From NCBI GenBank assembly GCA_049515915.1, contig JBEKTP010000001.1, forward strand, positions 6,855 to 70,854: a stretch of DNA of 64,000 nt. The letters are read 5' to 3'. The stretch's first letter is position 1, and every line of letters starts with the position of its first letter. Both the position numbers and the translations under genes were made by a program. The stretch is from Patescibacteria group bacterium (GTDB lineage Bacteria; Patescibacteriota; UBA1384; UBA12157; JAENIV01). Below the pieces are notes generated by a model. That model was not told where the DNA came from. It did not search any database and was given only the letters and a program-made list of their open reading frames with translations. This document shows, in pieces, positions 1-58,501 of the stretch.

Positions 1-225
1 CGTTAGTCACCAGATTGACAATAAAAGGTATCACGAGAAGTCCGGGGATATTTCCTTTTATCGCTTGATAAAAAACAAAGCCATAGGAAATGGCGATCAA
101 AATATACAAAAATGGCCAAACAATACCGAAGAGGTAAGGAGGCGGTGACAGCGGCGGCCGCTTAAAAGTTTTGTAGGTTTTCTGATAGTCCATATTTTTA
201 TTTTACTCCAAACTTTTGATGAATT

Positions 226-240
226 TGACGATTTTTAGTT
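226..240 (-). repeat. recurring intergenic motif AACTAAAAATCGYCRAR (instance 1)
   Basis: The plus strand reads tgacgatttttagtt. It overlaps the last codon and stop of the gene ending at 235. Confidence 0.5.
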
Positions 241-501
241 TATTTTTCTTAATTCTATTTTGACTTTTTCTAATATTTTTTTGCGATTCTCGGGTAAGTT
301 TTTGCCGGCGCGATTGATGTAAAAGGAAAGCATGCTCATGGCCGAATTATACGGCATCCGGGCTTTGCGCCGAGTGCTAGTTTTGGCCGATTTCATTAAG
401 GAACGGGCGATCCGTTTCGGATCATCAAAACTAAAAATTCCCGGCTCCAAATCCAAAGCATTACTTTCTTTTGTAACTTTCCCCGACCAATATTTTTTCA
501 T
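235..501 (-). CDS. DUF3175-like small protein
   Basis: 88 aa; the motif SAMSMLSFYINRAGKNL resembles the DUF3175 family. The start is 8 nt after the intergenic motif instance. Confidence 0.45.
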   Translation of the reverse strand: MKKYWSGKVTKESNALDLEPGIFSFDDPKRIARSLMKSAKTSTRRKARMPYNSAMSMLSFYINRAGKNLPENRKKILEKVKIELRKIN

Positions 502-507
502 AAAATA

Positions 508-527
508 TCTCGGCGATTTTTAGTTCG
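508..527 (-). repeat. recurring intergenic motif (instance 2)
   Basis: The plus strand reads ctcggcgatttttagttcg. It lies right after the protease stop and 8 nt before the ATG of the DUF3175-like gene. Confidence 0.5.
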
Positions 528-924
528 ATTTATATTCTTTAGGTATAATTTCGAATTGCTTTTTACCTACTTCAAAAGTTAATTTAACTTTATTAAAGAA
601 TCCTTCGTGACCGAGAATCCCGAATCCATACGGGTTAATATCTCGTGTGAATATTATCGGCACATCTTTAAAAAGCCAACCGCCAATTTCTAAATCTACT
701 TTGTGAATATAACCTCGACCGGTACCGCATATTCCACCGAAGGGGTATTCGTCGCCTTTTTCCAAATCGATATGAAGTTGTTCGGCAACCTCCGCATGGA
801 CAATTGCTATATCGGCACCAGTATCAATTAACGCTTGATAGGGAAAAGATTTGCCGCCGGATTTAAAAACAACCGGCAAAACCGGTTTGTAAAACATCTG
901 AAATTTTACATATGGAAATTTCAT
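520..924 (-). CDS. retropepsin-like (clan AA) aspartic protease
   Basis: 134 aa; the D-T-G-A active-site signature (LIDTGADIAIV) is typical of retroviral-type aspartyl proteases. It is translationally coupled to the upstream small ORF. Confidence 0.6.
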   Translation of the reverse strand: MKFPYVKFQMFYKPVLPVVFKSGGKSFPYQALIDTGADIAIVHAEVAEQLHIDLEKGDEYPFGGICGTGRGYIHKVDLEIGGWLFKDVPIIFTRDINPYGFGILGHEGFFNKVKLTFEVGKKQFEIIPKEYKSN

Positions 925-925
925 T

Positions 926-1126
926 TTAACAGCCGATGTAGGACAATATTTTTTCAGGAACTTTAAAAGTTAGAGGGACTTTTCTCTTACCATATTTCTT
1001 CTCAAACTTATTTAATGCCTGAGATAGTTTTTTGTCTGCAGAAAGAACCGTCGTCTGATTAGAATCCAAAACCACCCATTGCCCTTTATAATCTTGATAA
1101 ATTTTTGTCTGATCAATAACTTTCAT
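926..1126 (-). CDS. small hypothetical protein, partner of the retropepsin-like protease
   Basis: The likely true start is MKVIDQ at 1126, with a GGAGTG RBS and a TTGGAT-N15-TGnTATAAT promoter-like element upstream. It is about 66 aa and ends 1 nt before the protease start. Confidence 0.4.
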   Translation of the reverse strand: MKVIDQTKIYQDYKGQWVVLDSNQTTVLSADKKLSQALNKFEKKYGKRKVPLTFKVPEKILSYIGC

Positions 1127-1178
1127 TTTCACTCCAACATTATTATAACACAATTATTTGACATCCAAAATTTGGAGG

Positions 1179-1196
1179 TTCGACGATTTTTATTGC
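1179..1196 (-). repeat. recurring intergenic motif (instance 3)
   Basis: The plus strand reads ttcgacgatttttattgc. It is preceded on the minus strand by TTGACG-N14. Confidence 0.5.
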
Positions 1197-1702
1197 TATA
1201 TTATTTCGTCAATTAAACCTGCCTCGAGGGCTTCCCCTGCAGAAAAATATTTGTCTCCCAACGCAGCAGCCTCGATTTGTTTAACTTTCTCGCCACTTCT
1301 AGTAGCATAAATTTCAAAAAATTTTTCATCCAATTTTCTAAAAGTGTTTAATGCTTCCTGAGCATTATCAACATAACCGGCCACTTGAACACTACTTTTA
1401 TGGAGCATCATTTGACTATTAGTTGTCATCAACCTTTTTTCACAAGCTTGTAATATCAAAGACGCCCCAGAAAAAGCAATCCCTGATACAACTCCAACGG
1501 TTTTTCTTTTGCAATTTTTAAGTAAGTCGTAAAGCCCAAGAGCAGTATGAGTATCGCCGCCAGGCGAATTGATAAAAACAGTTACTTCATCATTTTCTTT
1601 AGTGGAATTCATGACCGCTGAAAATCTTGCCGTAAAGTTAACATAAAATTCTTTATTATCTATCGGCCCCGCTACCCAAATTGAATTTTTGTATTCAGTC
1701 AT
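1196..1702 (-). CDS. ClpP-like serine protease (S14 family), stand-alone
   Basis: 168 aa. The INSPGG motif and the GIAFSGASLIL segment (Ser nucleophile) are present, with His in MLHKSS. It is shorter than canonical ClpP. Confidence 0.6.
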   Translation of the reverse strand: MTEYKNSIWVAGPIDNKEFYVNFTARFSAVMNSTKENDEVTVFINSPGGDTHTALGLYDLLKNCKRKTVGVVSGIAFSGASLILQACEKRLMTTNSQMMLHKSSVQVAGYVDNAQEALNTFRKLDEKFFEIYATRSGEKVKQIEAAALGDKYFSAGEALEAGLIDEII

Positions 1703-1740
1703 CGAGTTATCCTTTTTAATTATAATTTTTCAACTTTGAG

Positions 1741-2421
1741 TTAAAAGGGTGTTTCATTGTCTGGACTTTTGTAGCCGTGAGTTATTTGGTCACCAACATG
1801 GCGGTATTTGCACCACTTGCAGTCTTCGGCTTCGGCTGGCAAGGGCCCAGATAAAAGATCATCAATAATTTTGGCGAACCTAAGAAAATGCGCCTCATCG
1901 CAAGGAATTTCCAGCCACTTGGGCGGAAAATCTATTTTAGCAATGCCATTCTTGAACTTCACCATGTCTGGATAAAAAATCAAAAGCCCAAGCTTGGTAA
2001 TTTTTAACGACTCGCCGCTACTCGGATTTTCGAGAGCAAATTTATAAGCGCCGAGCTGGGTTTTATACTTTTCGATTTTATCTTCGGCCGGCTGGCTGAT
2101 TTTTAAGTCAATTAAAGTGTGGGTACCATCGCTATTTTTGACCAATAAATCGTATTTTCCTTTGATGTAAACATTCGTTTCCGGCACCGGCATCGATTCG
2201 ACCCAGCCTTCTTGTTTGATAACTTCTCCCTCAGGTAGATCTTTGGAAATGGATTGTAAATTTCTCCCGACTAAATCTCCTTGGAGCCGACTGTTGATCG
2301 CCGCAAAAACTCCCGGCATCGGCATGCTAGGCTGATAGATTCCAGCTTTGACTTTTAAGCAATAGCAAAGCTTACATTCTTCGTAAAGGTAGGCGAAATC
2401 CGACGGTGACAGTTTATACAT
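1741..2421 (-). CDS. Cas4/RecB-like PD-(D/E)XK nuclease with Cys clusters
   Basis: 226 aa. The D..(I)DLK core and a QxxxY motif (TQLGAY) are present. Cys cluster CKLCYC lies at the N-terminus and C175 plus CKWC near the C-terminus, resembling the Fe-S staple of Cas4/AddB-type nucleases. Confidence 0.55.
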   Translation of the reverse strand: MYKLSPSDFAYLYEECKLCYCLKVKAGIYQPSMPMPGVFAAINSRLQGDLVGRNLQSISKDLPEGEVIKQEGWVESMPVPETNVYIKGKYDLLVKNSDGTHTLIDLKISQPAEDKIEKYKTQLGAYKFALENPSSGESLKITKLGLLIFYPDMVKFKNGIAKIDFPPKWLEIPCDEAHFLRFAKIIDDLLSGPLPAEAEDCKWCKYRHVGDQITHGYKSPDNETPF

Positions 2422-2430
2422 AAAGTTATC

Positions 2431-3342
2431 CTATCTATCCGGTGCGTTATCGTAACCTTGCTTGATAACCGACATAATATAATCGGCATTGGCGTTGTTG
2501 ACAAAATCGTGATACCACAGAGCGGTCGTGCCCCATTTGTAATTCGCCGGAACTTTCTTAAATATCTTTTTGGGATCGTCAATTTTTGTCGATCGAACAT
2601 ACACTCTAATTTTTTCTTTTGACAAGTTCAACGAGCAAAAATTATGATATTGAACTTTATAGCCAATATAATTTTTAACCGGTTTTGCCTGAATACGACT
2701 ATCCAGATTTATTATTCGCTCATGCATTTCCTCGAAAAGTGTTTTCACATTTCCACTGACGCGACTTAAGTGATCGGCAATCGTATATTCTTGAATCTCC
2801 CGACTAACTTCTTTGACTGGTTTAGTTTTTAAAATTGATGAAATCGAAATGTCCGATTTGGGAGTTTCAATTTGCTGAATTTGAAAAATATCATTTGACC
2901 AATCATACTTCCAAAGTTCAAAAGGAACACCTTTAAATCCCAAGGCGTTTGTTTGGTGAGTGTTAAAACTTCGAGCAATAAAAATTACCCGCGCTTGAGA
3001 CCAATCAATTTCTTTTTTTCCAATTTTACTTTCAAGAACAATTTGATAGTCACCTTTGTGGTTTAAGAGCCAGCTTAAGTAAGCCATGCCTTGATCAATG
3101 ACGCTTTCATGAGAATCTTTTTTATATTCTATAAGCACGGGGCCTTTTGTTTCTGAATCGTAGGCAATCGTATCAATCGAAAGTCCCTGACCTCCGAATT
3201 CAGTTCTTAGAAATTCTAAACCAAAAATCTCTTTGAGATTATTGTCAACTAATGTCTGCAACTCAAGTTCACTTTTAAAACTTTCTGACTTAAGGGCCTT
3301 GAACTTGTTATTTTCAATTTTAAATATCGGCATAATACCCAA
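2431..3342 (-). CDS. RecB-family PD-(D/E)XK nuclease domain protein with C-terminal unknown domain
   Basis: 303 aa. The N-terminal IDTIAYD...LIEYKK (D-E-K) is followed by a QGMAY (QxxxY) motif. The C-terminal half is uncharacterised. Confidence 0.5.
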   Translation of the reverse strand: MGIMPIFKIENNKFKALKSESFKSELELQTLVDNNLKEIFGLEFLRTEFGGQGLSIDTIAYDSETKGPVLIEYKKDSHESVIDQGMAYLSWLLNHKGDYQIVLESKIGKKEIDWSQARVIFIARSFNTHQTNALGFKGVPFELWKYDWSNDIFQIQQIETPKSDISISSILKTKPVKEVSREIQEYTIADHLSRVSGNVKTLFEEMHERIINLDSRIQAKPVKNYIGYKVQYHNFCSLNLSKEKIRVYVRSTKIDDPKKIFKKVPANYKWGTTALWYHDFVNNANADYIMSVIKQGYDNAPDR

Positions 3343-3385
3343 ATTATATTACTTTAGGACTTTTTAATCCAGAAACCTCTAGTTT

Positions 3386-3529
3386 TTATTTCTTCTTTGG
3401 TTTCTTTCTTCTTCCCGTTACTAAAGTTCGTGCATATCCTGGTTCTTTTTTCTCTGGCGTATGTGGATTTTGAAGGCCTTTCCCGGCTTTACTTAGCTGA
3501 GCTTTTGTTGGTTTTTTATTTTTTGCCAT
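3386..3529 (-). CDS. small very basic protein (47 aa)
   Basis: It is absent from the ORF track because it is under 60 aa. MAKNKKPTKAQLSKAGKGLQNPHTPEKKEPGYARTLVTGRRKKPKKK is preceded by an AAAGGTGGTGA RBS 7 nt upstream. Confidence 0.35.
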   Translation of the reverse strand: MAKNKKPTKAQLSKAGKGLQNPHTPEKKEPGYARTLVTGRRKKPKKK

Positions 3530-3618
3530 TATTACTCACCACCTTTCTCAATCACTTCTTCAACTTTTTTTTCGCTTCTGCTAAAAGCGCTTTGGATTTT
3601 TGGTGAGCAGTGTGGAAT

Positions 3619-3780
3619 TCAAAATTCCTCAATACCTTGGTACTCCAGTTTCTTTTTGTATTCCGGCATTGTGTCGCCATTTTCCAAGCAAACATCGAGC
3701 ATAAAGGTTTTTGGATTCGCCCAGCTTTCGACATCCACTCGCCCTTCACCGTATTTGCTTTTCACTAAAACACAAGTCAT
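3619..3780 (-). CDS. small hypothetical protein (53 aa)
   Basis: ATG at 3780 is preceded by a strong RBS (AAAAGGAGGTATAA). The track ORF 3552..3749 is in a different frame and is probably spurious. Confidence 0.4.
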   Translation of the reverse strand: MTCVLVKSKYGEGRVDVESWANPKTFMLDVCLENGDTMPEYKKKLEYQGIEEF

Positions 3781-3802
3781 TTATACCTCCTTTTAAAAAT
3801 AT

Positions 3803-3823
3803 TCAATCGACGATTTTTAGTTC
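3803..3823 (-). repeat. recurring intergenic motif (instance 4)
   Basis: The plus strand reads tcaatcgacgatttttagttc. It immediately follows the GNAT stop codon and lies about 20 nt upstream of the RBS of the 53-aa ORF. Confidence 0.5.
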
Positions 3824-4309
3824 TTATGTTAAATCTTTTTGCAATGTTACCAATTCTAATTCTTCATTCGTTTTTTTATTAATAACATTACTAATAACTT
3901 TTCTGCTTGTGATTTGGGTAAAACCGATTTTACGGTAAAATTTGCGTGTTCGTACATAAGGTTCATATTTAATTTTTTCAGATAATGTTTCAACTTTTAA
4001 TTTATTGATGTCTAATGTTATTAATATTTCTTCTAATTCGTGGACTAAAGCTTGACCAATGCCTTTTCTTTGATAGTCTGGTAAAACTCCCAACCAACTT
4101 ATAAACACTTCTCCCTCAAAAGAGCTATAGGTTAGAAAACCAACAATTTTTCCATCACATTCGGCTACATAGCCTTGATGAAAATTCAAATCATTCGGAA
4201 TTTCGAAAGTCAGCGCGTAATTATCAAACCAATCATGAAGATTTTTAGCAATCTTTATTATTTCCGGCCGATCTCGTTGTCCAAGTTTTCTAATTTTAAT
4301 ATTTTGCAT
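3824..4309 (-). CDS. GNAT family N-acetyltransferase
   Basis: 161 aa; the acetyl-CoA binding motif QRKGIGQALV is present. Confidence 0.8.
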   Translation of the reverse strand: MQNIKIRKLGQRDRPEIIKIAKNLHDWFDNYALTFEIPNDLNFHQGYVAECDGKIVGFLTYSSFEGEVFISWLGVLPDYQRKGIGQALVHELEEILITLDINKLKVETLSEKIKYEPYVRTRKFYRKIGFTQITSRKVISNVINKKTNEELELVTLQKDLT

Positions 4310-4321
4310 TTATTTAAATCC

Positions 4322-4339
4322 CTCGACGATTTTTGATTC
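4322..4339 (-). repeat. recurring intergenic motif (instance 5)
   Basis: The plus strand reads ctcgacgatttttgattc. It lies 12 nt upstream of the GNAT ATG, and the minus strand reads TCAAAAATCGTCGAGGGATTT. Confidence 0.5.
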
Positions 4340-4442
4340 ATATTAATTATACTCCAAAAACTATATAAACCTTTATTTTTTAAATAGATATAGTATAATA
4401 AACACGATTTGGATTCCAGCGTCAGAAGGAGGTGAACAAATC

Positions 4443-4763
4443 ATGGCCGATGAGAAGACCTACGCGCAAAGACTGGCTGAGACCCAAGCGATGTCCACCG
4501 AGGAGATTCACGAAGCCATCAGAGCGCGCGAGGCAGCTGGAAAACCCTGCGGCATACTCCACAGGGTATTAGCGGATCGTTCCGACGAGCGGGCCAAAAC
4601 GCTCGGTATCGATCCGCCCAGACCAGGAAGAAAGACGTATTCTGAACGGTACTCCGAGACCAGCTCCATGTCTACAAGCGAGATCAGAGCCAAGATCGCA
4701 GAACGCAGGGCTCAAGGCAAGGAGGTCGGTGTCCTCGAGCGCGTTCTTTCAGAACGTGAGTAG
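4443..4763 (+). CDS. high-GC hypothetical protein with internal tandem duplication
   Basis: 106 aa. Two ~45-aa repeats are present (MSTEEIHEAIRAREAAGKPCGILHRVLADR / MSTSEIRAKIAERRAQGKEVGVLERVLSER). GC is about 57% against about 35-40% flanks. It has a strong RBS (GAAGGAGGTGA) and its own terminator. Confidence 0.5.
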   Translation: MADEKTYAQRLAETQAMSTEEIHEAIRAREAAGKPCGILHRVLADRSDERAKTLGIDPPRPGRKTYSERYSETSSMSTSEIRAKIAERRAQGKEVGVLERVLSERE

Positions 4764-4790
4764 CCGCCCAGGCCAGTTGAACGATCGAAC

Positions 4791-4830
4791 GAAACCGCCT
4801 AGTAGCTTTAAAGCGAACGGCGGTTTTATT
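4791..4830. terminator. bidirectional rho-independent terminator
   Basis: Hairpin AAACCGCC...GGCGGTTT with a T-run on the plus strand and an A-run upstream. It sits between convergent genes (4443..4763 + and 4894..5421 -). Confidence 0.6.
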
Positions 4831-4853
4831 TAGATAGAATAACCCAGAATTTC

Positions 4854-4873
4854 CCTCGGTGATTTTTAGTTCG
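4854..4873 (-). repeat. recurring intergenic motif (instance 6)
   Basis: The plus strand reads cctcggtgatttttagttcg. The minus strand reads TTGACT-N14-TAAAAATCACCGAGGGAAATT, about 20 nt downstream of the last gene of the R-M operon. Confidence 0.5.
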
Positions 4874-4893
4874 TGCTTTTTAAGTCAAGATAC

Positions 4894-5421
4894 CTAACTC
4901 TTTTTCTGGTTTTCTTTTGAATAGTACCAGAGAGCCTTGTCTAATGTTCGCAACGATACTTGATATTTTTCTGATAGTTTTCTTAATTCTTCAGTATATT
5001 TTTCCCAAAATCCAAAATCATAGCTTTTGGGCTGTTGCCATCCTAATGACCAAATAGCTCTGAAATCTAATATTGGATATTTATTTGGATATGCAAAATG
5101 TAAAATTACAGATGCAACCGGCCACGATGCACCTTTAATCAATAATAATGATCCAATGCTCGCTCTTTCATTTTTTGTGGATAATGCGAAGCTAGTTATT
5201 TCTCTAATAAACTCGTCGTCATTATTTTCATAATGTTTCTTGGGACGTTTTGACTTCCAAAGCCCGAGTATTACAAAATGCCTTTTATCCAAGTATTTAT
5301 TTGATAAAAACCAGTTTTTTAATTCCTTTTCATATTTTTCGTCGTCCGTTGCCCGAAAAATTGAATCGTATTTATTGCTATATTCTATTATTTTTTCTCT
5401 TGATAGTTTCATTTCTTTCAA
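4894..5421 (-). CDS. hypothetical protein (175 aa), last gene of the R-M operon
   Basis: Long ORF with a 6-nt gap to the upstream glycosylase-like gene and no recognisable motif. Confidence 0.45.
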   Translation of the reverse strand: MKEMKLSREKIIEYSNKYDSIFRATDDEKYEKELKNWFLSNKYLDKRHFVILGLWKSKRPKKHYENNDDEFIREITSFALSTKNERASIGSLLLIKGASWPVASVILHFAYPNKYPILDFRAIWSLGWQQPKSYDFGFWEKYTEELRKLSEKYQVSLRTLDKALWYYSKENQKKS

Positions 5422-5427
5422 TAATTT

Positions 5428-6204
5428 TTATTTCTCGCTTATTATCTTCGGGCACAATGAATTCAAATAACACTTTTGACAATCTGGATTTTTTGGTCGG
5501 CACCAGTTGTGCCCGATTTCCCAACAAGACAAATCAAAAATTCCAGGATAATCCGGATGAAGTTCGCGGGCAGCATATACCAATTCTTCAGAATTTTCTT
5601 TTTTTGTAAAACCAATCCGCTTAAATACCCGTCTCAAATGAACATCTGGCGAGACATCAATACAAATTTTATCTTTTACTTCAATCTTGAAATCTCTAAC
5701 AAGGATATTAGCGGCCATTGTAGAAATTTTAATCCCTACACCCCTAAATTCTTGAAACCTTTTAACTAGCAAGGCACTACTTGGTTTTCCCAACCAAATA
5801 TTTGCCGCATTGCTTTTATATTTATTTTTTATGTCTTGCAAAGCATAAAAAAAATTCTCAGCCATATCAGTATTGAATCTATGAAGTTTCTTATTATTAA
5901 AAAGTTCAATATATTGTTCTTTGCTTAATTTTAATAATTCAGTTATTTCAAAAGTATTTAACTCTTGAGAGATTTTGTAGGGTATAACCCAAGCTCTTTC
6001 GGCGGGGATTTGCCGATCCATAACACAGGCAAGCACAAATGCGTGTGGATATTTATCCAGATTATTTAATAATTTTTCGGCTTGGTTATTATTAGTAGTA
6101 AAGTTGACAATTTCTTTGGGTCTATCCAAAAGAGCCTGACCACGTTTTATCAGTAATTCGCTAATTTCCGCTTTTTTAAATTCATTATCCATCCAATTCT
6201 CCAT
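5428..6204 (-). CDS. endonuclease III-like HhH-GPD DNA glycosylase with [4Fe-4S] cluster loop
   Basis: 258 aa. An HhH motif with Lys (FRGVGIKISTMAANIL) is followed by IDVSPDVHLRRVFKRIGF, resembling Nth GVGRKTA...VDTHIFRV. The C-terminal C-x6-C-x2-C-x5-C (CRPKNPDCQKCYLNSLC) matches the EndoIII/MutY Fe-S loop. Confidence 0.65.
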   Translation of the reverse strand: MENWMDNEFKKAEISELLIKRGQALLDRPKEIVNFTTNNNQAEKLLNNLDKYPHAFVLACVMDRQIPAERAWVIPYKISQELNTFEITELLKLSKEQYIELFNNKKLHRFNTDMAENFFYALQDIKNKYKSNAANIWLGKPSSALLVKRFQEFRGVGIKISTMAANILVRDFKIEVKDKICIDVSPDVHLRRVFKRIGFTKKENSEELVYAARELHPDYPGIFDLSCWEIGHNWCRPKNPDCQKCYLNSLCPKIISEK

Positions 6205-6240
6205 TCATTGATTTGTGCAAAACCGAATCGAAAAGTTCTT

Positions 6241-7380
6241 TTATAATTCCCCTTCAAATGCGCTAGATAGGATGGATTGTTTGAGAGAGGAAAGATCGGC
6301 GAGCTGGTTTTGCTGAAGGGTTTTGAGTTTTTCGACTTTTTCTCGCAAATTATTGAGATAAGCAACAATCTTTTTTTGTTCCGAAATCGACGGAAGCGGG
6401 ATTCTTTCTTTTTTTAAAATTTTATAATGTCTGCTGTATCCCAAGCTTTCAAGATCTAAATCTTGAAGAGCATAATAAAAATATTTTGGATTGAATTCAT
6501 CTTTCGGATCTATGATTTTGGTGCCATCTGCCCCGATGGCGAAAACAAAATCAATATATTTAAAAATTCGAGTATGGTCTCCAAAAATAATTACCGGCAA
6601 TTCCCCTTGATACGTGGTATATTTATCATTTGTGTAACCGCCAATCAAAGACGCACCTTGATCAACAATTGGATAATTTCCTTCTCTATAGTAATTTGTC
6701 TTAGCAATTCCTTTTATTTTTTTTGGTAACTTTTTAATACATTCGGAAAATTCTATCATTTTATTTTTTTTACTGATATTTTGTAAAACTTTTTTAAGAG
6801 ACGAGCAGAAAATCTGATTTGTTCCTACGAGAGATTTTTGGCGGAGGACGATGGCTTTGTCAATTTTTTCAAAATATTTCTCAATCTTCGCCACGATTTG
6901 TTTTTGGATTTGGAGAGGCGGGATAGGGATTTCGAGATTAGAATATTGTTGGGCATTTATATTGGGTTGTGTAACCTGATTTAGTGTCCTTGAAATAAAG
7001 TTTTTATAATAGGGGCTTAATGAATATAGAAAGAAAAATTTGGGAAGCACTTTATTTTTATCCAGCTTAAACCGAATTAAATAAGATGCGAACAATGCGG
7101 GTTTTGGCAAATCTGTTTTATTAACTAAATACATTCTGCCAACTGAGCCGCTTCGGGCAATTAAAATATCATCATTTTCCAAAGCATATTTTTTGAAAGT
7201 TACTTCATTAGTATCAATAAACTTAGGATTAGCAAGATTTAACATTCCTGAATCATTTATGTCCGTTATCCGAAGATATAAATATGGTTTTTCTTGTAAA
7301 CTTGCTTTAGCCGTAAAACCGTATTGTGGTTTTGTCTTTAATAATTCTCCTATTTTTTTTATCGGCCAGTTAGTTTTCAT
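6241..7380 (-). CDS. hsdS: Type I restriction-modification specificity subunit HsdS
   Basis: 379 aa with two target-recognition-domain halves and conserved LPLPPLQIQKQIVAKIE / IPLPSISEQKKIVAYL repeats. It overlaps the upstream ORF by 4 nt. Confidence 0.85.
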   Translation of the reverse strand: MKTNWPIKKIGELLKTKPQYGFTAKASLQEKPYLYLRITDINDSGMLNLANPKFIDTNEVTFKKYALENDDILIARSGSVGRMYLVNKTDLPKPALFASYLIRFKLDKNKVLPKFFFLYSLSPYYKNFISRTLNQVTQPNINAQQYSNLEIPIPPLQIQKQIVAKIEKYFEKIDKAIVLRQKSLVGTNQIFCSSLKKVLQNISKKNKMIEFSECIKKLPKKIKGIAKTNYYREGNYPIVDQGASLIGGYTNDKYTTYQGELPVIIFGDHTRIFKYIDFVFAIGADGTKIIDPKDEFNPKYFYYALQDLDLESLGYSRHYKILKKERIPLPSISEQKKIVAYLNNLREKVEKLKTLQQNQLADLSSLKQSILSSAFEGEL

Positions 7381-7976
7381 TTTGATTTCCTCATCAGACC
7401 ATTAATGATTTTCCGATCGAAATAAAAAAGGAGTAATCCCAATCTTTGTAAACAGTCAATGAAAACAAAATAAGTAAATTGCCCCATCGGCGTTCGCTGT
7501 AAATCCTGTAAAATCTTTCTTTTTCTCTCATCTATGTGAAAAAACTCAGCGTTAAACCATAAATCCACAATTTCTTCTGTTTTTAAATTTTGATTATTCA
7601 CCTTAAGTCTCATCCCACCGAGAGGGAAATTATCTTTTTTCTCTAATATTTTTCCCCAATTTTCGCGACACCCAACAAGTTCTTTGATGATTTCTTCATT
7701 TTTACAATTTTGAAAAACAAAGTTACAAACTGAATAAAAATTAATCGATGAATTTTCTGCAATAAAATGCCGGAAATCTAAAATAAAGGCTTTTGTCGAT
7801 TGCTCATCCGGACCGGCCGATTTCACAGTTAGACCTTCATTTTCGCTATAGTTTAATTGCAAAGAAACATTTTTATAAAAATTCCTGTTGGAATGAAGTT
7901 TCTGAACTTTATCGTGAAAATCACTTAAAATCCTATCATATTTTTCGTTTACAATATCCTTATTATTAGTTTTCAT
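7377..7976 (-). CDS. hypothetical protein embedded in Type I R-M operon (199 aa)
   Basis: ATGA-type overlaps on both sides (with hsdS and with the 208-aa ORF). No known motif was recognised. Confidence 0.5.
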   Translation of the reverse strand: MKTNNKDIVNEKYDRILSDFHDKVQKLHSNRNFYKNVSLQLNYSENEGLTVKSAGPDEQSTKAFILDFRHFIAENSSINFYSVCNFVFQNCKNEEIIKELVGCRENWGKILEKKDNFPLGGMRLKVNNQNLKTEEIVDLWFNAEFFHIDERKRKILQDLQRTPMGQFTYFVFIDCLQRLGLLLFYFDRKIINGLMRKSK

Positions 7977-8599
7977 TTAACTAATCCAATAAACTTTAAA
8001 AATCTTATTCCTTTTTCAGTAACAATATAGCTGTCATCGATTTTTTGAATCATTATATTTTGTAATAGAACATTAAAAATCGATTCGCGTTCTAATTTAT
8101 CTGGGATTCTGGGCTCATAAATAATGTTGAACAGGTCTTTTGTGAATGACCCAAGATCGTGAGCCCACTTTAAAACAATTTTTGTGTTTGGCACAAAGAA
8201 TAGATTAAGATATAAAAATTCATACAATTCAGACCGTTGAACAAGATAATTGATGAAATTCTCTTTTTCCTGAATTTTTTTTTCCTTTTCTTCAGATTCA
8301 CCTGATATTTTCAAAAATTCTTGATCTAATAAGTTAATTTGTTCTTCTGTCAAAGTAATTCCTTTTTGTTCCAGTGAATTTTCAATCTTTCTGTCAATGT
8401 TTTCCGGTGGCCGCTGAGTCGCTTCCACAGGACCAACTCTAAGAGAGTAAATATTTTTCAGAAATTCTCGGATAGAATCACTGAATTTTAATATAAAAAT
8501 TAGTCCTAAAACGAAAATAGCAACAGGCCATGACAAGACAGCTTTTAAATATTCTGGGATGACTTTAATAATTTCTAATGTCATAAATTTCTTACTCAA
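7973..8599 (-). CDS. hypothetical membrane-anchored protein embedded in Type I R-M operon (208 aa)
   Basis: An N-terminal TM helix (WPVAIFVLGLIFILKF) is followed by a charged helical region. It is abutted to the neighbouring ORFs. Confidence 0.5.
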   Translation of the reverse strand: MSKKFMTLEIIKVIPEYLKAVLSWPVAIFVLGLIFILKFSDSIREFLKNIYSLRVGPVEATQRPPENIDRKIENSLEQKGITLTEEQINLLDQEFLKISGESEEKEKKIQEKENFINYLVQRSELYEFLYLNLFFVPNTKIVLKWAHDLGSFTKDLFNIIYEPRIPDKLERESIFNVLLQNIMIQKIDDSYIVTEKGIRFLKFIGLVK

Positions 8600-9511
8600 T
8601 TATTTTTTGGACGATAAATATTCCTCATGTTTATCAGCTATTTCGAAAAGCCATTGCACAATTTTATCAAGATAGCTTTTTATTTCTTTGGCCTGGCCTT
8701 CGCCAAATGCGATTATTGACAGATATTCTTCTAAGGTTTGTAAAACTAGTACGGATATTGTTTCAATCAGCTGTGGCCTGGGAGTGGCATATTCAAATTT
8801 TGGTAGCCGAAAACCCATCTTATCCTCGTCTCTTTCTAAGTGATCAAAGTCAAGCTCGTGCCAACTACCATGTACATAGTGAGAACTAATTTTGAATACA
8901 AGTTCATATATAGGGTAAAGACCGACATCTTCTGCCTTTCCAGATATTTCTAAGTGTTTCTTTTCGAGTCCCCATTTTGTTTTTTCGAGTTCTTTTTCCT
9001 CAAGATTATCGAGATGTGATCGTTTGTAAGTTTTATTTATACTTTCCAACATCCTTTTTTCAATGGGTAACTTATTATTCCGTTTTTGAATATTTCGAAG
9101 AACGATATTTTCTAGTTGTTTTTCGTAAGCTAACGAAGCCCTTTTATATTTTTTATAAATGTCCGTATCAAAGTATTTTATCAAATAATTTAAATTTATT
9201 ATTGTTTCAGCAAGTGACCTTAAAACAATAAAAGCAATTTCTGTCCTGCGCTCTACGATTAAAAAGGTAAAAGTGTCGTAAAGTTTGTAAATCCTGACGA
9301 GATGCCCTCGAAGAATATCTAATTTTTCTGGTTCAATTTCTTTTTGGGATACAATTCCCGCAATTAAAATGACTGCTTTACGCACATCATTTGCAACAGC
9401 CACAAGATCGACCATAAAATCATTGTTACTATTCCTTTCTTTAGTAATCAATGGCAATTTTAATTCTGGTAATTCTAGCTGGACAAATTCATCTTCCTTT
9501 GGCTCTTTCAT
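8600..9511 (-). CDS. hypothetical alpha-helical protein embedded in Type I R-M operon (303 aa)
   Basis: It overlaps the hsdM stop by 4 nt. An His-rich segment SSHYVHGSWHELDFDH is present. It is possibly a DUF5677-like family member, but that is unverified. Confidence 0.5.
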   Translation of the reverse strand: MKEPKEDEFVQLELPELKLPLITKERNSNNDFMVDLVAVANDVRKAVILIAGIVSQKEIEPEKLDILRGHLVRIYKLYDTFTFLIVERRTEIAFIVLRSLAETIINLNYLIKYFDTDIYKKYKRASLAYEKQLENIVLRNIQKRNNKLPIEKRMLESINKTYKRSHLDNLEEKELEKTKWGLEKKHLEISGKAEDVGLYPIYELVFKISSHYVHGSWHELDFDHLERDEDKMGFRLPKFEYATPRPQLIETISVLVLQTLEEYLSIIAFGEGQAKEIKSYLDKIVQWLFEIADKHEEYLSSKK

Positions 9512-10932
9512 AAATTTAGATTATTTAAAATTTTTTTAATTTCATCTTCTTTTTCTATTATATTTTTAATCAATTCCTCCGGTTTCTTAAGATCTAAATT
9601 CTCTTTCCCATTCGGATTCTTGGCAGAGAGGTCATAATTTTTGGAAATAATTCCTTCATTTTTAACCGCCCAAGAATTTTCAGATTTCGTTTTCTTCTGC
9701 CATTTTTCAAGAGCATCTGCCGTATGTTCGTCTAAAATTGGGTTTTTCTTGGTGTATTTGATACCGGCAGGCGGGTTCAGTTCGTAATACCAAATTTCTT
9801 CGGTTGGTTTGCCTTTTTCAAAAAATAAAAGATTGGTTTTGGGACCTTGGCCGGATGAAGAAACATTGGCAAAAACGCCGGGCGGAAGGCTGATGATGGT
9901 ATGTAAATTACAATTTTCTAAAAGCTCTTTTTTAATATTGACATAGGTTTTTCCAGTTCTAAAAAGCACGCCTTCAGGCAAAACAATTCCGGCTCGGCCG
10001 CCGGCTTTGAGCTTTTTCATCAAATAATACAAGGCTAAAAGTTCGGTATCCGAGGATTTAATCGGAAAACCTTGCAAAACTTCTTTGTCTTCAACGCCAC
10101 CAAAGGGCGGATTAGTCAAAATAATATGGTAGCGTTCGCTTTCCGGAATAGAAGTTAAATCCTCCGCAAAAGTATTAGTTTTGGTAATGTGGGGCGATTG
10201 GAGATTGTGTAAAAGCAGGTTCATAATGCCCAAAAGATAGGGCAGGGATTTGGCTTCATTGCCATAAAAAGTCTCATTTTGGAGAACGGAAAATTGTTTA
10301 GCCGTTAATTTAGGATTTTTTTCTTGGAGGTATTTGAAACTTTCAGCTAAAAATCCACCGGAGCCAGCAAAAGGATCAAAGATTTTCTCGCCGATTTGGG
10401 GATTAATAATTTTTACCATCAGCCGAATAATTGGTCGCGGAGTATAAAATTCACCGGAAGCGCCACCCTCTTGGCCCATCTTTAAAAGCAGTTCTTCGTA
10501 GACTTGGGAAATAATGTGAGTGTCCTCGGGCTTAGAAAAATCAAGTTCATCTAAAAGATTGACGACATCTTTGAAATTGAATGGCGAGTGCATATAGTTG
10601 CGCAGATCATCAAAAAGTGAGGCAATAATGTTTTTTAATGGGGTACCGCGAAGATTTCTTAAATACGGAAACAATTTAATATTTACAAACTCTGATTGTT
10701 CTTTTGCTTCCAGCTTGCTCCAAGCAGACCATTGATATTTTTTTTCGATAACTGGCTGGTATCTTTCCCCAAAAACTTGCGCCCCCAGTCGGCTTTTATG
10801 CTCAATCTGTTCAAAAAGTTTTAAAAATAACATCCAAGAAACTTGTTCGATGTACTGCAAAAGATAGAGTTTGTCACGGCGCATAATATCGCAGGCTGAC
10901 CAGATTTTATTTGAGAGGGTTTGTCTATCCAT
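9508..10932 (-). CDS. hsdM: Type I restriction-modification DNA methyltransferase subunit HsdM (N6-adenine)
   Basis: 474 aa with an HsdM N-terminal domain, the catalytic NPPFG motif (LTNPPFGG) and an AdoMet motif (FDPFAGSGGFL). Confidence 0.9.
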   Translation of the reverse strand: MDRQTLSNKIWSACDIMRRDKLYLLQYIEQVSWMLFLKLFEQIEHKSRLGAQVFGERYQPVIEKKYQWSAWSKLEAKEQSEFVNIKLFPYLRNLRGTPLKNIIASLFDDLRNYMHSPFNFKDVVNLLDELDFSKPEDTHIISQVYEELLLKMGQEGGASGEFYTPRPIIRLMVKIINPQIGEKIFDPFAGSGGFLAESFKYLQEKNPKLTAKQFSVLQNETFYGNEAKSLPYLLGIMNLLLHNLQSPHITKTNTFAEDLTSIPESERYHIILTNPPFGGVEDKEVLQGFPIKSSDTELLALYYLMKKLKAGGRAGIVLPEGVLFRTGKTYVNIKKELLENCNLHTIISLPPGVFANVSSSGQGPKTNLLFFEKGKPTEEIWYYELNPPAGIKYTKKNPILDEHTADALEKWQKKTKSENSWAVKNEGIISKNYDLSAKNPNGKENLDLKKPEELIKNIIEKEDEIKKILNNLNL

Positions 10933-13443: not shown

Positions 13444-13535
13444 ATTAAAACAGCCCCTTTCTTATCTCAATTCTACCCCAGTTAATTAATAAAGTCCAGA
13501 GAATTAACGGGGCAAGCTCCAGTAATAGGAAGATA

Positions 13536-14237
13536 TCAATCTTTCATTCTGAGATCGGTGAAGAGGAAGCCGGAGCGGAGGACGGTTTTGCCGACGCGGA
13601 TATCGAGCGGGCGGCGAAAGCCCGGGGCATCGAAAACAAAAGTGTGGAATTCGCCGTTTTCGGCACACGGATCAACGCCTTTTGGCAAAGATTTTAGAAA
13701 ATCCAAATCAAAACTTGCGCCCGCCAGTTTCGGCGGCATTTTTTTAGGATCAAGACAAACCACCTTGGCTTTGAGTCCGCCGTCAATCATTTCGTGGGCG
13801 AGTTTATTCGTGTCCTTTTTCCAAAGCGGAAAAAGCGGCGTTATGCCGGCGGGAAGGAGTTTTTCTTCGCGGTAAGCGCGCACATCTTCCAAAAACAAAT
13901 CGCCGAAAATAATTTTTTCGACGCCACAGCTTTTTGCCTCAAGCATCGCCCGGTGCATTTTTTCTTCGTAAGTATAATTTGCGCAAGCTTTCGGAATGAG
14001 AACTTTGTGTAGCGGGAGACCCAAAGCTTCAGCCTGGGCTGCCAATAAACTTTCGCGAACGCCGTGCATCGAAACCCGCCGGTAACCTTCGGTGATGGTC
14101 GTCATGATTCCGGTAACTTCAATCTCGCCGCTCGCTCTGGCAATTTTTAGCGCCCAAATGCTGTCCTTGCCGGAACTTGAGGCGAGCCACGCCTTGGTTT
14201 TCTTTGGCATGGCAATATCGTATCTCCAATCGTTCAT
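13536..14237 (-). CDS. PP-loop ATP pyrophosphatase, diphthine-ammonia ligase (Dph6)-like / MJ0570 family
   Basis: The PP-loop SSGKDS is present. The track start at 14339 would overlap the NUDIX gene, so the start is probably ATG 14237 (or 14210). Confidence 0.6.
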   Translation of the reverse strand: MNDWRYDIAMPKKTKAWLASSSGKDSIWALKIARASGEIEVTGIMTTITEGYRRVSMHGVRESLLAAQAEALGLPLHKVLIPKACANYTYEEKMHRAMLEAKSCGVEKIIFGDLFLEDVRAYREEKLLPAGITPLFPLWKKDTNKLAHEMIDGGLKAKVVCLDPKKMPPKLAGASFDLDFLKSLPKGVDPCAENGEFHTFVFDAPGFRRPLDIRVGKTVLRSGFLFTDLRMKD

Positions 14238-14254
14238 TTTTGTAAACAACAGGT

Positions 14255-14680
14255 CTATTTGAGATCTTGGATAAGACGATACAACTTCGGATGTAAAGAG
14301 GTCGTAAAATATGTCTTTAGTTCTTCGGGTTTGACCCACTTGAGTTCTTTAAATTTTTCCCCGGCTTTAACTTTCCCGCCAACAATTTCCGCCGTATAAT
14401 AAATTGATAAAAATTGGCGGTTTTCGGGATAGGTTTTAGCAAAAATTACATCTTTGATTTTAACGTCGAGATTGGTTTTCTTTTTGACTTCCGCACTTAA
14501 ATATTTTTCGAGATCATCGCCGTACTTCGGACGGCCACCAGGAAAAGACCAAGTCAGGTTTTTTAAATAGGGATCGTTTTCACGCCGGCCAATTAAAATT
14601 TTGCCGTCTTTTTTAATGACCGCCAGCAAGTTAATCAAAAACACGCCACGATCAAACTCTTGCCAATTTATTTTATCCAT
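14255..14680 (-). CDS. NUDIX hydrolase
   Basis: 141 aa with a Nudix-box-like GGRPKYGDDLEKYLSAEVKKKTNL segment. Confidence 0.65.
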   Translation of the reverse strand: MDKINWQEFDRGVFLINLLAVIKKDGKILIGRRENDPYLKNLTWSFPGGRPKYGDDLEKYLSAEVKKKTNLDVKIKDVIFAKTYPENRQFLSIYYTAEIVGGKVKAGEKFKELKWVKPEELKTYFTTSLHPKLYRLIQDLK

Positions 14681-14806
14681 AATTAAGTTTATATTACTCT
14701 AACTACAAATCAAAATCAAGATAGCGTCCGATGAGCGGTTTGACATTAACCTGTTTTATTATTACTATTAGAATAGACTTAATTACTAAGTGAGGGTTAT
14801 TTATTA

Positions 14807-18111: not shown

Positions 18112-18170
18112 ATCGGCCGACCCCGCCAGGGTAAATATTATAAGTATATTTGAGTAAATTTTCAGACCAT

Positions 18171-35416: not shown

Positions 35417-35479
35417 TTAAAAATTTGTTATTTTAAAATTTGTCATTTAATCTTCTCACATTTTAACCTAAATTGACCG

Positions 35480-55441: not shown

Positions 55442-55549
55442 ATAAGTCGCAAATAATTTACGACGTTCTGAACCCAGCTCGCGTACCCTTTTAATTGGCG
55501 AACAGCCAAACCCTTGGGACGTACTTCCGCCCCAGGATAGGATGAGCCG

Positions 55550-56372: not shown

Positions 56373-56404
<32 letters not shown>

Positions 56405-56425
56405 ATTCGCTACCATAGAACGGTT

Positions 56426-57860: not shown

Positions 57861-57891
<31 letters not shown>

Positions 57892-58451: not shown

Positions 58452-58501
<50 letters not shown>

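Follow-up and report, generated by a model that had tools for sequence, protein, structure and literature searches.

Retropepsin-like genes are the 'B' genes of two two-gene PADLOC candidates, PDC-M08 and PDC-M52, which have been found embedded in defence systems and which, as PDCs, are themselves candidates. Here we describe a 64-kb stretch of DNA (the window, meaning the whole stretch analysed) that contains a retropepsin-like protease gene with weak matches to PDC-M08B and PDC-M52B. The gene is coupled to a small DUF5678 gene and lies within a longer array, and we compare this arrangement with defence candidates, type II toxin-antitoxin modules and integron cassettes.

Nine genes in a probable mosaic island

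All nine minus-strand ORFs between positions 235 and 4340 were recovered (9/9), and public annotations of identical metagenome contigs call the same nine genes. Pfam searches of the translations agreed with the domains guessed in the first-pass annotation, and its description of nine short minus-strand genes with unrelated predicted functions holds; the spacers it gave as 0–45 nt are 1–89 nt. The island is AT-richer than its surroundings (GC 0.36–0.38 versus 0.44 elsewhere in the 64-kb window), and the DNA source is a chromosome, as 23S/5S rRNA genes and tRNA-Ala are present in the window. It belongs to an uncultured Patescibacteria (CPR) bacterium, since a protein identical to the ClpP-like one is recorded under that name from a MAG. 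Beside the array lies a complete type I R-M system (6241–13443, minus strand, as the array; Pfam and PADLOC), comprising hsdS (6241–7380), hsdM (9508–10932) and hsdR (10933–13443), all on the minus strand, with embedded 199-aa, 208-aa and DUF5677 genes; a PDC-S07-like NUDIX gene is also next door.

A close relative, L028, is ~95% identical in nucleotide sequence and collinear with window positions 1–2438, 3544–3825 and 14737–18113, keeping the genes from DUF3175 through the Cas4-like nuclease and the 53-aa ORF. Positions 2439–3543 (the PDC-S18 nuclease and the 47-aa ORF) and 3826–14736 (slot B, running from the GNAT gene via the type I R-M system to NUDIX) are replaced there by unrelated genes. 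The block is thus variable, in keeping with the accessory character proposed at first reading. The segment from DUF3175 through the Cas4-like gene is kept in both closest genomes, so the independence of these genes rests on more distant comparisons. Each array family traced in other genomes has different neighbours, and in the loci inspected no two array genes other than the DUF5678-protease pair were found together outside the window lineage. We read positions 235–4340, with a probability of roughly 0.78, as part of a variable, AT-rich accessory/defence island, a mosaic of independently inherited modules and not a single system. The block would then be an otherwise ordinary defence/accessory island carrying one, possibly new, two-gene module.

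The nine genes share one strand, are tightly packed and sit in a defence-island context, as would be expected if all nine, proteases and nucleases included, co-operated in a single defence or toxin system expressed as an operon, but this reading is scarcely credible and is largely refuted. Gene content differs in the ~95% identical L028; homologues of the ClpP-like, Cas4-like and PDC-S18 genes and of the pair are each found by themselves in unrelated surroundings; and -10-like boxes stand upstream of the pair, the PDC-S18 gene and the GNAT gene. The defence-like character noted at first reading is supported by the adjoining type I R-M system and the PDC-S18 match of one nuclease. The combination of protease and nuclease does not persist as a module, and in the other genomes inspected the two nucleases occur apart.

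A conserved DUF5678-protease gene pair

The DUF5678 and protease genes are the only true multi-gene unit of the array; they are autonomous and translationally coupled. The protease gene (520–924, minus strand) encodes a 134-aa retropepsin-like (clan AA) aspartic protease, the putative effector, with Pfam matches to Asp_protease_2 and gag-asp_proteas (E ~1e-8, both above cut-offs). Its LIDTGAD motif, read from the sequence, is conserved together with GILGHEG across 18 homologues, and the best Foldseek matches of its AF2 model (pLDDT 88.5) were the HIV, SIV, FIV and EIAV proteases and Rickettsia APRc (5c9f). Separated from it by a 1-nt gap is the gene for the DUF5678 small protein (926–1126, minus strand; 66 aa from ATG; PF18929, E = 1e-7), a putative inhibitor or antitoxin; a mechanical TTG-start version of this ORF extends to 1153. 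The DUF5678 model (pLDDT 90.9) has a helix-strand-strand-helix-strand order followed by an extended C-terminal tail, and gave no informative fold or PDB match. A -10-like TATAAT (1142–1147, minus strand) is a candidate promoter of the pair's own, and TATAAT or TACAAT precedes the DUF5678 start by 15–25 nt in five of the five Patescibacteria versions inspected, all as consensus matches.

Eleven independent pairs were found in Patescibacteria, Chloroflexota and Lentisphaerota, with DUF5678 directly upstream of the protease in every one (11/11) and a spacing of either a 1-nt gap or a 4–20-nt overlap. The identities of the two partners drop in step (100/100, 98/98, 80/86, 70/69, 55/59 and 44/39%), nucleotide homology between the window lineage and locus L005 is limited to the pair, and in the loci inspected no companion from the rest of the array was found outside the window lineage. 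The small protein and retropepsin picked out as tightly coupled at first reading are a genuine conserved two-gene unit.

In layout the pair resembles a type II toxin-antitoxin module: its genes lie side by side or overlap and they co-vary, a -10-like box of their own precedes them in the five Patescibacteria versions inspected, and in Chloroflexota the DUF5678 partners carry an N-terminal region with weak RHH/CopG matches, below Pfam cut-offs. The window's DUF5678 protein differs in that no DNA-binding domain was found in it by Pfam. Judged by gene order and sequence, this is a conserved pair, not studied before, with the organisation of a toxin-antitoxin module; of the earlier suggestion of a toxin/antitoxin-like or zymogen-regulator pair, the organisation stands and the activity is putative. 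The most likely mechanism, which we propose tentatively, is that of a type II toxin-antitoxin or abortive-infection module. A homodimeric aspartic protease would be the effector, and DUF5678 would bind and restrain it, perhaps by offering its extended C-terminal tail, which is conserved, as a pseudo-substrate; the RHH-like DNA-binding N-terminus of the Chloroflexota partner could autoregulate the operon.

Alternatively, the pair could be no conflict module but a protease with a housekeeping function, resident in a conserved part of the CPR chromosome, whose small partner acts as its regulator, chaperone or substrate. TspO is found nearby in three CPR lineages and DUF4430/DUF6580 in two, which suggests that the pair may be fairly stable in position and not a highly mobile toxin-antitoxin module. 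No plasmid or viral-contig relatives of the protease were found, DUF5678 matched no PADLOC model, and the window partner's want of a DNA-binding domain also fits a housekeeping role. We nevertheless regard such a role as unlikely. The pair is patchy over three phyla (8 loci among 185,579 species genomes, in a scan of limited sensitivity that used two peptide patterns), two loci hold two copies of it each, and its immediate neighbours differ in every lineage. The neighbours in other loci include HicAB, a SocA/Panacea-domain gene, MmeI-type R-M genes and a transposase, and the RHH-like region of the Chloroflexota partners likewise speaks against it.

The two nucleases and the ClpP-fold protease

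The second nuclease (2431–3342, minus strand; 303 aa, or 300 aa from an alternative ATG at 3333) combines a PD-(D/E)xK nuclease with a DUF5655 domain (Pfam E = 3.9e-9) and is a full-length match to PADLOC PDLC04945 (E = 3.8e-84), the single-gene candidate PDC-S18. Its motif residues, read from the sequence, are D57, E72-x-K74 and Q84xxxY88; the QxxxY motif singled out in the first-pass annotation is present, but it also occurs in the Cas4-like nuclease. The gene occupies a strain-variable slot ~3 kb from the type I R-M system. At locus L034, hsdS is followed, after two small ORFs, by a 58%-identical homologue, and on the Acinetobacter plasmid pDETAB1 the gene order is hsdM-hsdS-DUF5655-hsdR; relatives on other plasmids stand alone. 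Besides the window, two of five other contexts inspected place a PDC-S18 relative inside or beside a type I R-M operon. Its probable role is that of an accessory nuclease that targets DNA in defence.

The Cas4-like gene (1741–2421, minus strand; 226 aa; PDDEXK_1, E = 2.6e-11) encodes a RecB-family PD-(D/E)xK nuclease with motif residues D91, D105-x-K107 and Q122xxxY126, cysteines arranged as CxxC and CxxC (all read from the sequence), and an SSB-like C-terminal ...PF tail. Its matches to the Cas4 models of PADLOC and the named families are weak and below cut-off, and its PADLOC matches are limited to these. More than 830 homologues were found, the top 120 of them 68–93% identical across CPR lineages, with invariant residues in the alignment and differing genomic contexts; no CRISPR linkage was found in the contexts inspected. 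The gene appears to encode a CRISPR-independent RecB-family nuclease, strongly conserved across CPR, for which a function in DNA repair or recombination is more likely than one in defence.

The ClpP-like gene (1196–1702, minus strand; 168 aa; PF00574, E = 1.7e-29) encodes a short serine protease of the phage head-maturation type, scoring 109.5 bits against NF045542 (head maturation protease; cut-off 120), 66.9 bits against clpP TIGR00493 (cut-off 308.6) and E = 1.2e-40 against phrog_94. Over its N-terminal ~30 residues there is no match to cellular ClpP models, and its triad (Ser78/His101/Asp165) is invariant in the alignment. We predict that this stand-alone gene is phage-derived; its ClpP-fold product has kept the Ser-His-Asp triad intact. 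Like the Cas4-like gene it has no defence-model match, and both are widely conserved stand-alone CPR genes.

These phage affinities raise the possibility that the block is what a prophage, or another mobile element once integrated here, left behind as it decayed; the ClpP-like protein would have served in head maturation, the Cas4-like protein as a phage exonuclease, and GNAT too would be of phage origin. The best matches of the ClpP-like protein are phage head-maturation protease families, the Cas4-like and GNAT proteins have PHROG matches (the latter to phrog_1249, E = 5e-19), and distant Cas4-like relatives, 29–37% identical, occur in three viral contigs. In addition, a Replic_Relax-like gene lies past the window start, L028 and L031 have a LexA-S24-methyltransferase fusion close to their Cas4-like gene, and a Bro-N gene occurs in L031. 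Such an origin is nonetheless quite improbable: the loci hold no portal, capsid, terminase or integrase genes, ClpP-like homologues stand alone in unrelated, non-phage CPR contexts at 60–80% identity, viral contigs yielded no close relatives, and neither attachment-site repeats nor a flanking tRNA were found.

Small accessory genes and a junction motif

We count the DUF3175 and GNAT genes and the two ORFs of 53 and 47 aa as separate accessory genes. GNAT (3824–4309, minus strand; 161 aa; Acetyltransf_7/_1/_10, Pfam E ~1e-15) is the first gene of slot B; its nearest named relatives are rimI-like, below cut-off, and no antitoxin-like gene was found upstream. The 53-aa ORF (3619–3780, minus strand) is preceded by an AAGGAGG RBS and has no family matches; it is 96% identical in L028 at the amino acid level, with six synonymous against two non-synonymous codon changes, and is probably a real gene. 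The Lys-rich 47-aa ORF (3386–3529, minus strand), with an RBS-like GGTGGTGA upstream, had no family matches in Pfam, PADLOC, named families or PHROG, nor was it found next to the L034 homologue of PDC-S18; with no homologue found, it remains a putative gene. DUF3175 (235–501, minus strand; 88 aa; PF11373, E = 2.5e-37) has 57–68% identity with megaplasmid-encoded proteins of Rhizobium, Methylovirgula and Ralstonia, which suggests transfer between phyla.

A 14-nt motif, A/C-T-A/C-AAAAATCG-T/C-CGA, recurs on the minus strand at six module junctions. J6 (CTAAAAATCGTCAA, 225–238) overlaps the DUF3175 stop codon and J5 (CTAAAAATCGCCGA, 510–523) that of the protease; J4 (ATAAAAATCGTCGA, 1180–1193) lies 2 nt after the ClpP-like stop codon, upstream of the pair, and J3 (CTAAAAATCGTCGA, 3807–3820) 3 nt after the GNAT stop codon, exactly where L028 homology starts. 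J2 (TCAAAAATCGTCGA, 4323–4336) is 13 nt upstream of the GNAT start, and J1 (CTAAAAATCACCGA, 4856–4869) is 24 nt after the stop codon of a 175-aa gene.

These copies could mark a true gene-cassette array, in which a short 3' junction site per module serves some recombinase as the crossover point for module swapping, like integron attC but a different and much shorter site. All six 14-mer matches (≤2 mismatches) in the 64-kb window fall within 225–4869, are coding-strand and intergenic, lie 0–24 nt after a stop codon in five cases, and bracket exactly the pair, DUF3175, GNAT and a 106-aa gene. A seventh copy, J7, follows TspO just outside the window; the 12-mer core has 13 matches against 2.95 expected, a number reached in 0 of 100 shuffles; and two of the six L028 homology breakpoints fall at motif edges (J3 and J7). 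A cassette array is nevertheless improbable. The other four breakpoints are without the motif, the annotated loci contain no integrase or recombinase gene, the copies do not have the inverted-repeat structure of attC, spacers are as short as 1–89 nt, and a promoter-like -10 box belongs to the pair itself. In L005, L007 and L009 the pair is flanked by no copy of the motif, which is thus specific to the window lineage; binding of a regulator or processing of RNA could account for the motif equally well. A shared motif could also link the modules through a common mechanism.

Nine genes in a strain-variable accessory island

All nine ORFs that the first-pass annotation had placed on the minus strand at 235–4340 were recovered at those coordinates, with the same nine called on identical public metagenome contigs, and each of its domain guesses was confirmed by Pfam: DUF3175 (E = 2.5e-37), Asp_protease_2/gag-asp_proteas for the retropepsin-like protease (E ~ 1e-8), DUF5678 (E = 1e-7), CLP_protease (E = 1.7e-29), PDDEXK_1 (E = 2.6e-11), DUF5655 (E = 3.9e-9) and GNAT (E ~ 1e-15). 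The two tiny ORFs (47 aa and 53 aa) matched no family. Packing of the genes is tight as described, with measured spacers of 1–89 nt in place of the 0–45 nt initially given. The absence of phage structural genes from the block also held, by Pfam and gene calls.

The window is chromosomal, since it carries 23S and 5S rRNA genes and a tRNA-Ala gene. GC content is 0.36–0.38 in the AT-rich region of the block, compared with 0.44 for 14737–53000. On the same strand as the block lies a complete type I restriction–modification (R-M) system, identified by both Pfam and PADLOC, comprising hsdS (6241–7380, −), hsdM (9508–10932, −) and hsdR (10933–13443, −), with three embedded genes including one for a DUF5677 protein. 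Past the window start, the contigs carry TspO, a weak Replic_Relax gene, an M50 peptidase, holB and PSP1.

Comparison with a close relative (locus L028, on a 542-kb contig) revealed 93–95% nucleotide identity and collinearity in three segments: 1–2438 (DUF3175, protease, DUF5678, ClpP-like and Cas4-like genes), 3544–3825 (the 53-aa ORF, which differs by 6 synonymous versus 2 non-synonymous codon changes) and 14737–18113. In place of 2439–3543, which holds the DUF5655 nuclease and the 47-aa ORF, the relative has a 94-aa ORF; in place of 3826–14736, which holds the GNAT gene, a 106-aa gene, two unknown genes, the type I R-M system, a diphthamide-synthase-like gene and a NUDIX gene, it has unrelated genes, including a LexA–S24–methyltransferase fusion. 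Because both 2439–3543 and 3826–14736 are replaced in this way, the block straddles two strain-variable slots, in agreement with the accessory character that had been proposed. In distant genomes, each family of the block has different neighbours. When all window proteins were compared with all fetched loci by tblastn, only the DUF5678–protease pair co-occurred; the two nucleases, whose joint occurrence elsewhere was to be checked, did not. A single nine-gene protease-plus-nuclease system was rejected on this lack of co-occurrence in the other loci. The original observation was thus confirmed, while its interpretation was borne out in part.

The block is an accessory and defence island of independent modules, an ordinary architecture, and it holds one conserved, uncharacterised two-gene module with a putative retropepsin-like effector. 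With a type I R-M system and PADLOC candidates in strain-variable slots, the locus has the typical make-up of a defence island, here in a genome of the Patescibacteria (CPR). To our knowledge, defence and gene exchange in these tiny, uncultured episymbionts are little known experimentally.

Several further genes of the variable slots may be described here. Between hsdM and hsdS (7377–9511, −) sit genes for a 199-aa, a 208-aa and the DUF5677 protein, of the kind proposed as defence candidates through 'guilt by embedding'; the DUF5677 protein has a weak PADLOC match to DitA. The NUDIX hydrolase gene beside hsdR (14255–14680, −) matches PDC-S07, a PADLOC phage defence candidate (PDC), at E = 9e-15, and overlaps the diphthamide-synthase-like (ATP pyrophosphatase) gene at 13536–14339. 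Adjoining hsdS, a 258-aa protein (5428–6204, −) with no Pfam match has a C-terminal Cx6Cx2Cx5C loop and weak endonuclease III/MutY matches (E ~ 0.007), and may be a divergent DNA glycosylase. Two different CPR lineages (L028, 5699–6973; L031, 3747–5240) have the fusion gene, which encodes LexA_DNA_bind, Peptidase_S24 and N6_N4 methyltransferase domains, in the vicinity of the Cas4-like nuclease gene.

A DUF5678–protease pair recurring in three phyla

The protease gene (520–924, −) lies directly downstream of the DUF5678 gene (926–1126, −). Its product is, judged by motif, HMM score and predicted fold, a retropepsin-like (clan AA) aspartic protease: the motif LIDTGAD is invariant in the family alignment, HMM scores exceed the cut-offs of PF13650 (35.6 vs 24.3) and PF13975 (35.8 vs 28.2), and the AF2 monomer model (pLDDT 88.5) adopts a retropepsin fold whose best Foldseek matches are the HIV, SIV, FIV and EIAV proteases together with Rickettsia APRc (probability 1.0, TM-target 0.59–0.78). 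The fold is like that of retroviral proteases, the eukaryotic Ddi1 RVP domain and APRc, and both the catalytic D-T-G-A motif and the G-I-L-G motif occur; in length, the protein equals one retropepsin subunit, which is predicted to need dimerisation, as in retroviral proteases. What sets the window protease apart from these relatives is its coupling to a DUF5678 partner and its free-standing bacterial form, with none of their polyprotein, UBL/UBA or membrane-anchor surroundings. Its N-terminus, MKFPY (near 910–924), is invariant in 18/18 aligned homologues (17 Patescibacteria-type and one divergent), and the Chloroflexota and Lentisphaerota proteases keep a related (F/L/T)-P-(Y/F) motif; we take the Phe-Pro to recall the autoprocessing sites of retroviral proteases.

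The DUF5678 protein was modelled (pLDDT 90.9) as helix–strand–strand–helix–strand followed by an extended tail at the C-terminus in which the motif VPxxxxxY[IV]G is conserved, and no informative structural relative was found for it. The family is small, an exhaustive search returning only 63 cluster representatives, mostly 60–85 aa long.

Eleven independent pairs of the two genes were found, separated by 1 nt or overlapping by 4–20 nt, and the identities of both partners co-vary. Within the Patescibacteria, the pair is adjacent (1-nt gap or 4-nt overlap) in five separate settings, and each of these five versions has a TATAAT-like −10 box of its own. DUF5678/protease identities of 100/100% in the window lineage fall together to 80/86% in L005, 70/69% in L009, and 55/59% and 44/39% in the two pairs of L007 (all three being other Patescibacteria loci); two pairs also occur in L026. 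At the nucleotide level, the window lineage and L005 are homologous only within the pair. Scanning 185,579 species genomes with the protease alignment identified distant relatives in Chloroflexota and Lentisphaerota, in all of which a small ORF ends at, or overlaps, the protease start. The Lentisphaerota partner is DUF5678-like and ~72 aa long. In Chloroflexota, the partner (~120 aa) joins a C-terminal DUF5678 domain to an N-terminal region resembling RHH/CopG proteins, with weak matches to RHH_1, CopG_antitoxin and TacA1 that all fall below cut-offs.

Two of these loci also show repeats around the pair. L007 contains three fragments (5714–5785, 8460–8531 and 9227–9298) matching the C-terminal ...LKQSILSSAFEGEL end of the window's HsdS, each of which trails a module (a 266-aa gene, a DUF5678–protease pair and HicAB); this suggests that modules were inserted into, or recombined via, hsdS repeats. 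In L005, the pair is flanked by a 38-nt hairpin-forming repeat (..CGCCTCA..TGAGGCG..; 7630–7667, ~7715 and 8407–8444), which differs from the repeat flanking the pair in the window.

A possible toxin–antitoxin role for the pair

The first-pass annotation had likened the small protein and the retropepsin to a toxin–antitoxin pair. A conserved, coupled pair stood up in 11 cases, and its function is a proposal. As in type II toxin–antitoxin systems (HicAB, VapBC and the RHH-antitoxin families), the pair consists of a small first gene in translational coupling with a larger second gene, the putative effector, with a promoter-like −10 box of its own, co-variation of the partners, several copies per locus in places, and varied neighbourhoods that include HicAB itself. 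The Chloroflexota partner, in which an N-terminal region with weak, below-cut-off RHH matches is fused to a putative partner-binding domain, may likewise be built as type II antitoxins are. The pair departs from these systems in that its putative toxin is a retropepsin-like aspartic protease, and in that the CPR partner, as represented by the window's DUF5678 protein, has no DNA-binding domain by Pfam. We know of no established toxin class in toxin–antitoxin systems formed by retropepsin-like aspartic proteases, and our search of a literature collection found no paper tying such proteases to these systems; searching by name for DUF5678, DUF3175/DUF5655 and PDC-S18/M08/M52 returned nothing relevant.

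Seen in the data are the order and coupling of the two genes, their co-variation and duplication, the promoter-like boxes and the neighbourhood. We put the probability that the pair works as a type II toxin–antitoxin or abortive-infection-like module at roughly 40%. In such a module, the effector would be a dimeric aspartic protease, with DUF5678 serving as its cognate inhibitor or as a labile pseudo-substrate, and the Chloroflexota versions would have added an RHH domain for autoregulation. The main competing explanation, a housekeeping protease with a regulatory partner, appears unlikely to us, though it deserves serious weight: the pair lies repeatedly near TspO and DUF4430/DUF6580, and the protease had no match on plasmids and no relative among the viral contigs scanned with its alignment, an absence that also speaks for housekeeping. 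Among the neighbours of the pair are also HicAB, transposases, hsdS fragments, MmeI-type R-M genes and a SocA/Panacea-domain gene.

Two PADLOC candidates offer a further parallel. PDC-M08, with 381 occurrences, and PDC-M52, with 55, are A>>B cassettes, and PDCs are predicted candidates chosen because they lie within BREX, DISARM or type I R-M systems (Payne et al. 2024, bioRxiv 10.1101/2024.01.29.577857). Both resemble the pair in having two genes, with a retropepsin-like B protein of about 120–140 aa. They differ from it in that the DUF5678 proteins had no match to the PADLOC A models at E ≤ 1, while the B models matched the window protease weakly (PDC-M08, E = 8e-6, 23.9 bits; PDC-M52, E = 1e-4, 20.3 bits). 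Membership of the pair in PDC-M08 or PDC-M52 fails on the unmatched A component.

Compact and made up of just two genes, the module recurs in three phyla and lends itself to direct tests in E. coli. Were the protease a toxin checked by DUF5678, aspartic proteases would join the effectors of toxin–antitoxin and abortive-infection systems, and a function would be gained for two Pfam families that lack an assigned role and, by extension, for the candidates PDC-M08 and PDC-M52.

Nuclease, ClpP-like, DUF3175 and GNAT genes

The 303-aa nuclease (2431–3342, −) carries D57, E72-x-K74 and Q84xxxY88 and matches the PADLOC model PDLC04945 (PDC-S18) over its full length (E = 3.8e-84; residues 4–297 against profile positions 1–301 of 302). 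Going by this match, it is a member of the candidate family PDC-S18, with a putative role in defence. In L034, two small ORFs separate an hsdS gene from a downstream relative with 58% identity, the order on the Acinetobacter plasmid pDETAB1 is hsdM-hsdS-DUF5655-hsdR, and on Staphylococcus, Streptomyces and Lichenicola plasmids the relative stands alone; on the strength of these contexts, we regard the protein as a mobile single-gene nuclease often found with type I R-M systems. The founding examples of PDC-S18 lie inside type I R-M operons, as does the pDETAB1 relative, whereas the window gene is ~3 kb outside the R-M operon and not embedded in it. The 47-aa ORF, a putative gene, was rejected as a partner of this nuclease, as it is absent beside the L034 homologue.

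In the Cas4-like protein (1741–2421, −; C-terminus near 1741–1760), D91, D105-x-K107, Q122xxxY126 and C16/C19/C201/C204 are invariant across the family alignment. Homologues number >830, and the top 120 are 68–93% identical across Berkelbacteria, Nealsonbacteria and Woesebacteria, a degree of sequence conservation that suggests strong constraint or frequent transfer inside CPR; homologues with 70–73% identity stand alone in Woesebacteria and Nealsonbacteria. It has the PD-(D/E)xK and QxxxY motifs and four conserved Cys in common with Cas4 and AddB-type RecB-family nucleases, but the Cys are arranged as CxxC...CxxC and not 1+3 as in Cas4, and its score against TIGR00372 (Cas4) is 22.6 bits (cut-off 65). 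There is no CRISPR-like tandem array in the 64-kb window and no cas gene among the neighbours of the Cas4-like gene here or in L028, L029 and L031; a CRISPR link was rejected, no array having been found. Most members (alignment A2) end in an acidic linker and (D/E)(I/L/T)PF, for example EDIPF, which we take to resemble the SSB C-terminal interaction tip DDDIPF, as a lead only.

The ClpP-like protein has an S78/H101/D165 triad that is invariant in the family alignment. It shares the fold and Ser-His-Asp triad of cellular ClpP, but its N-terminal ~30 residues are unmatched by cellular ClpP models, and true ClpP was rejected at equivalog level (TIGR00493, 66.9 vs a cut-off of 308.6), with only the general Pfam CLP_protease domain passing. 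Its best matches are NF045542, at 109.5 bits (cut-off 120), and phrog_94 (E ~ 1e-40). Identity as a phage head maturation protease (NF045542) was also rejected, on the sub-threshold score and the lack of structural-gene neighbours: unlike those enzymes, the protein consists of only a 168-aa protease domain, and no portal, scaffold, capsid or other phage structural genes lie near the gene, here or in three other CPR contexts. Homologues (60–80% identical) stand alone, with Trypsin_2, RidA or an MmeI-type R-M gene as their neighbour. A conserved pairing of the ClpP-like and Cas4-like genes was discarded, the two being adjacent only in the window lineage and 7 kb apart in another contig. Single-sequence scans of viral contigs with both proteins returned nothing, the Cas4-like alignment found only three relatives there (29–37% identical), and after these scans a prophage origin was rejected.

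The DUF3175 protein (235–501, −) shares 57–68% identity with proteins encoded on megaplasmids of Alphaproteobacteria and Betaproteobacteria (Rhizobium, Agrobacterium, Methylovirgula and Ralstonia), a similarity that implies probable recent inter-phylum transfer of the gene. For the GNAT, whose best named matches are rimI-like and phage acetyltransferases, a TacAT/AtaRT-like toxin–antitoxin arrangement was rejected: no antitoxin-like gene (RHH/DUF1778) lies upstream, only the divergent 106-aa gene on the plus strand.

A repeated motif at module ends

A 14–17-nt motif, on the coding strand A/C-T-A/C-AAAAATCG-T/C-CGA, occurs in six copies within 225–4869 (225–238, 510–523, 1180–1193, 3807–3820, 4323–4336 and 4856–4869, all −), which are the sole 14-mer matches with ≤2 mismatches in the 64-kb window. 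All six are intergenic and on one strand, five of them at 0–24 nt past a stop codon. A seventh copy lies after TspO, just past the window (L001, 11144–11157). The 12-mer core has 13 matches against 2.95 expected, a number reached in 0/100 shuffles. The copies bracket exactly the 106-aa gene, the GNAT gene, the DUF5678–protease pair and the DUF3175 gene, and of the six points where homology to L028 breaks off, two coincide with edges of the motif (at 3807–3820 and at the copy after TspO). Beside the pair in other lineages, the motif is absent.

Integron cassette arrays resemble the block in consisting of short, unrelated genes on one strand with a repeat at module 3' ends. However, attC sites are structured elements of 50–150 nt and the motif is linear, and some block modules carry a promoter-like −10 box of their own, unlike integron cassettes. 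An integron was rejected: no recombinase or integrase is visible in the annotated loci, no attC-like inverted repeats occur between the genes, spacers are 1–89 nt, and the pair has its own −10 box. Modules could in principle be exchanged at the 3' motif by a route using neither an integron-type integrase nor attC, but we consider the motif improbable as a cassette junction, and it is likewise improbable that the block is a cassette array exchanged at this motif and that the pair is at the same time a new aspartic-protease toxin–antitoxin or abortive-infection class. The motif may act as a crossover site specific to this lineage, as an operator or as a signal for RNA processing. Were it a recombination site, it would represent a new way of building accessory islands.

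Additional features of the window

The 106-aa gene (4443–4763, +) is the sole plus-strand gene in the island and has no family match; it contains two internal repeats of ~42 aa, has a GC content of 0.57 against 0.33–0.38 in its surroundings, and is followed 3' by a hairpin and T-run (~4795–4835). An Rfam scan of 1–5000 gave one chance-level match only. The 23S rRNA gene (55378–59103, −; also 55564–55878) measures 3726 nt against a 2925-nt model and harbours a group I intron as well as other, ORF-bearing insertions; the tRNA-Ala gene lies ~2.5 kb from it, with two ORFs between. Finally, a short tandem repeat with a 15/30-nt period and about 2–3 copies is found at 35390–35466.
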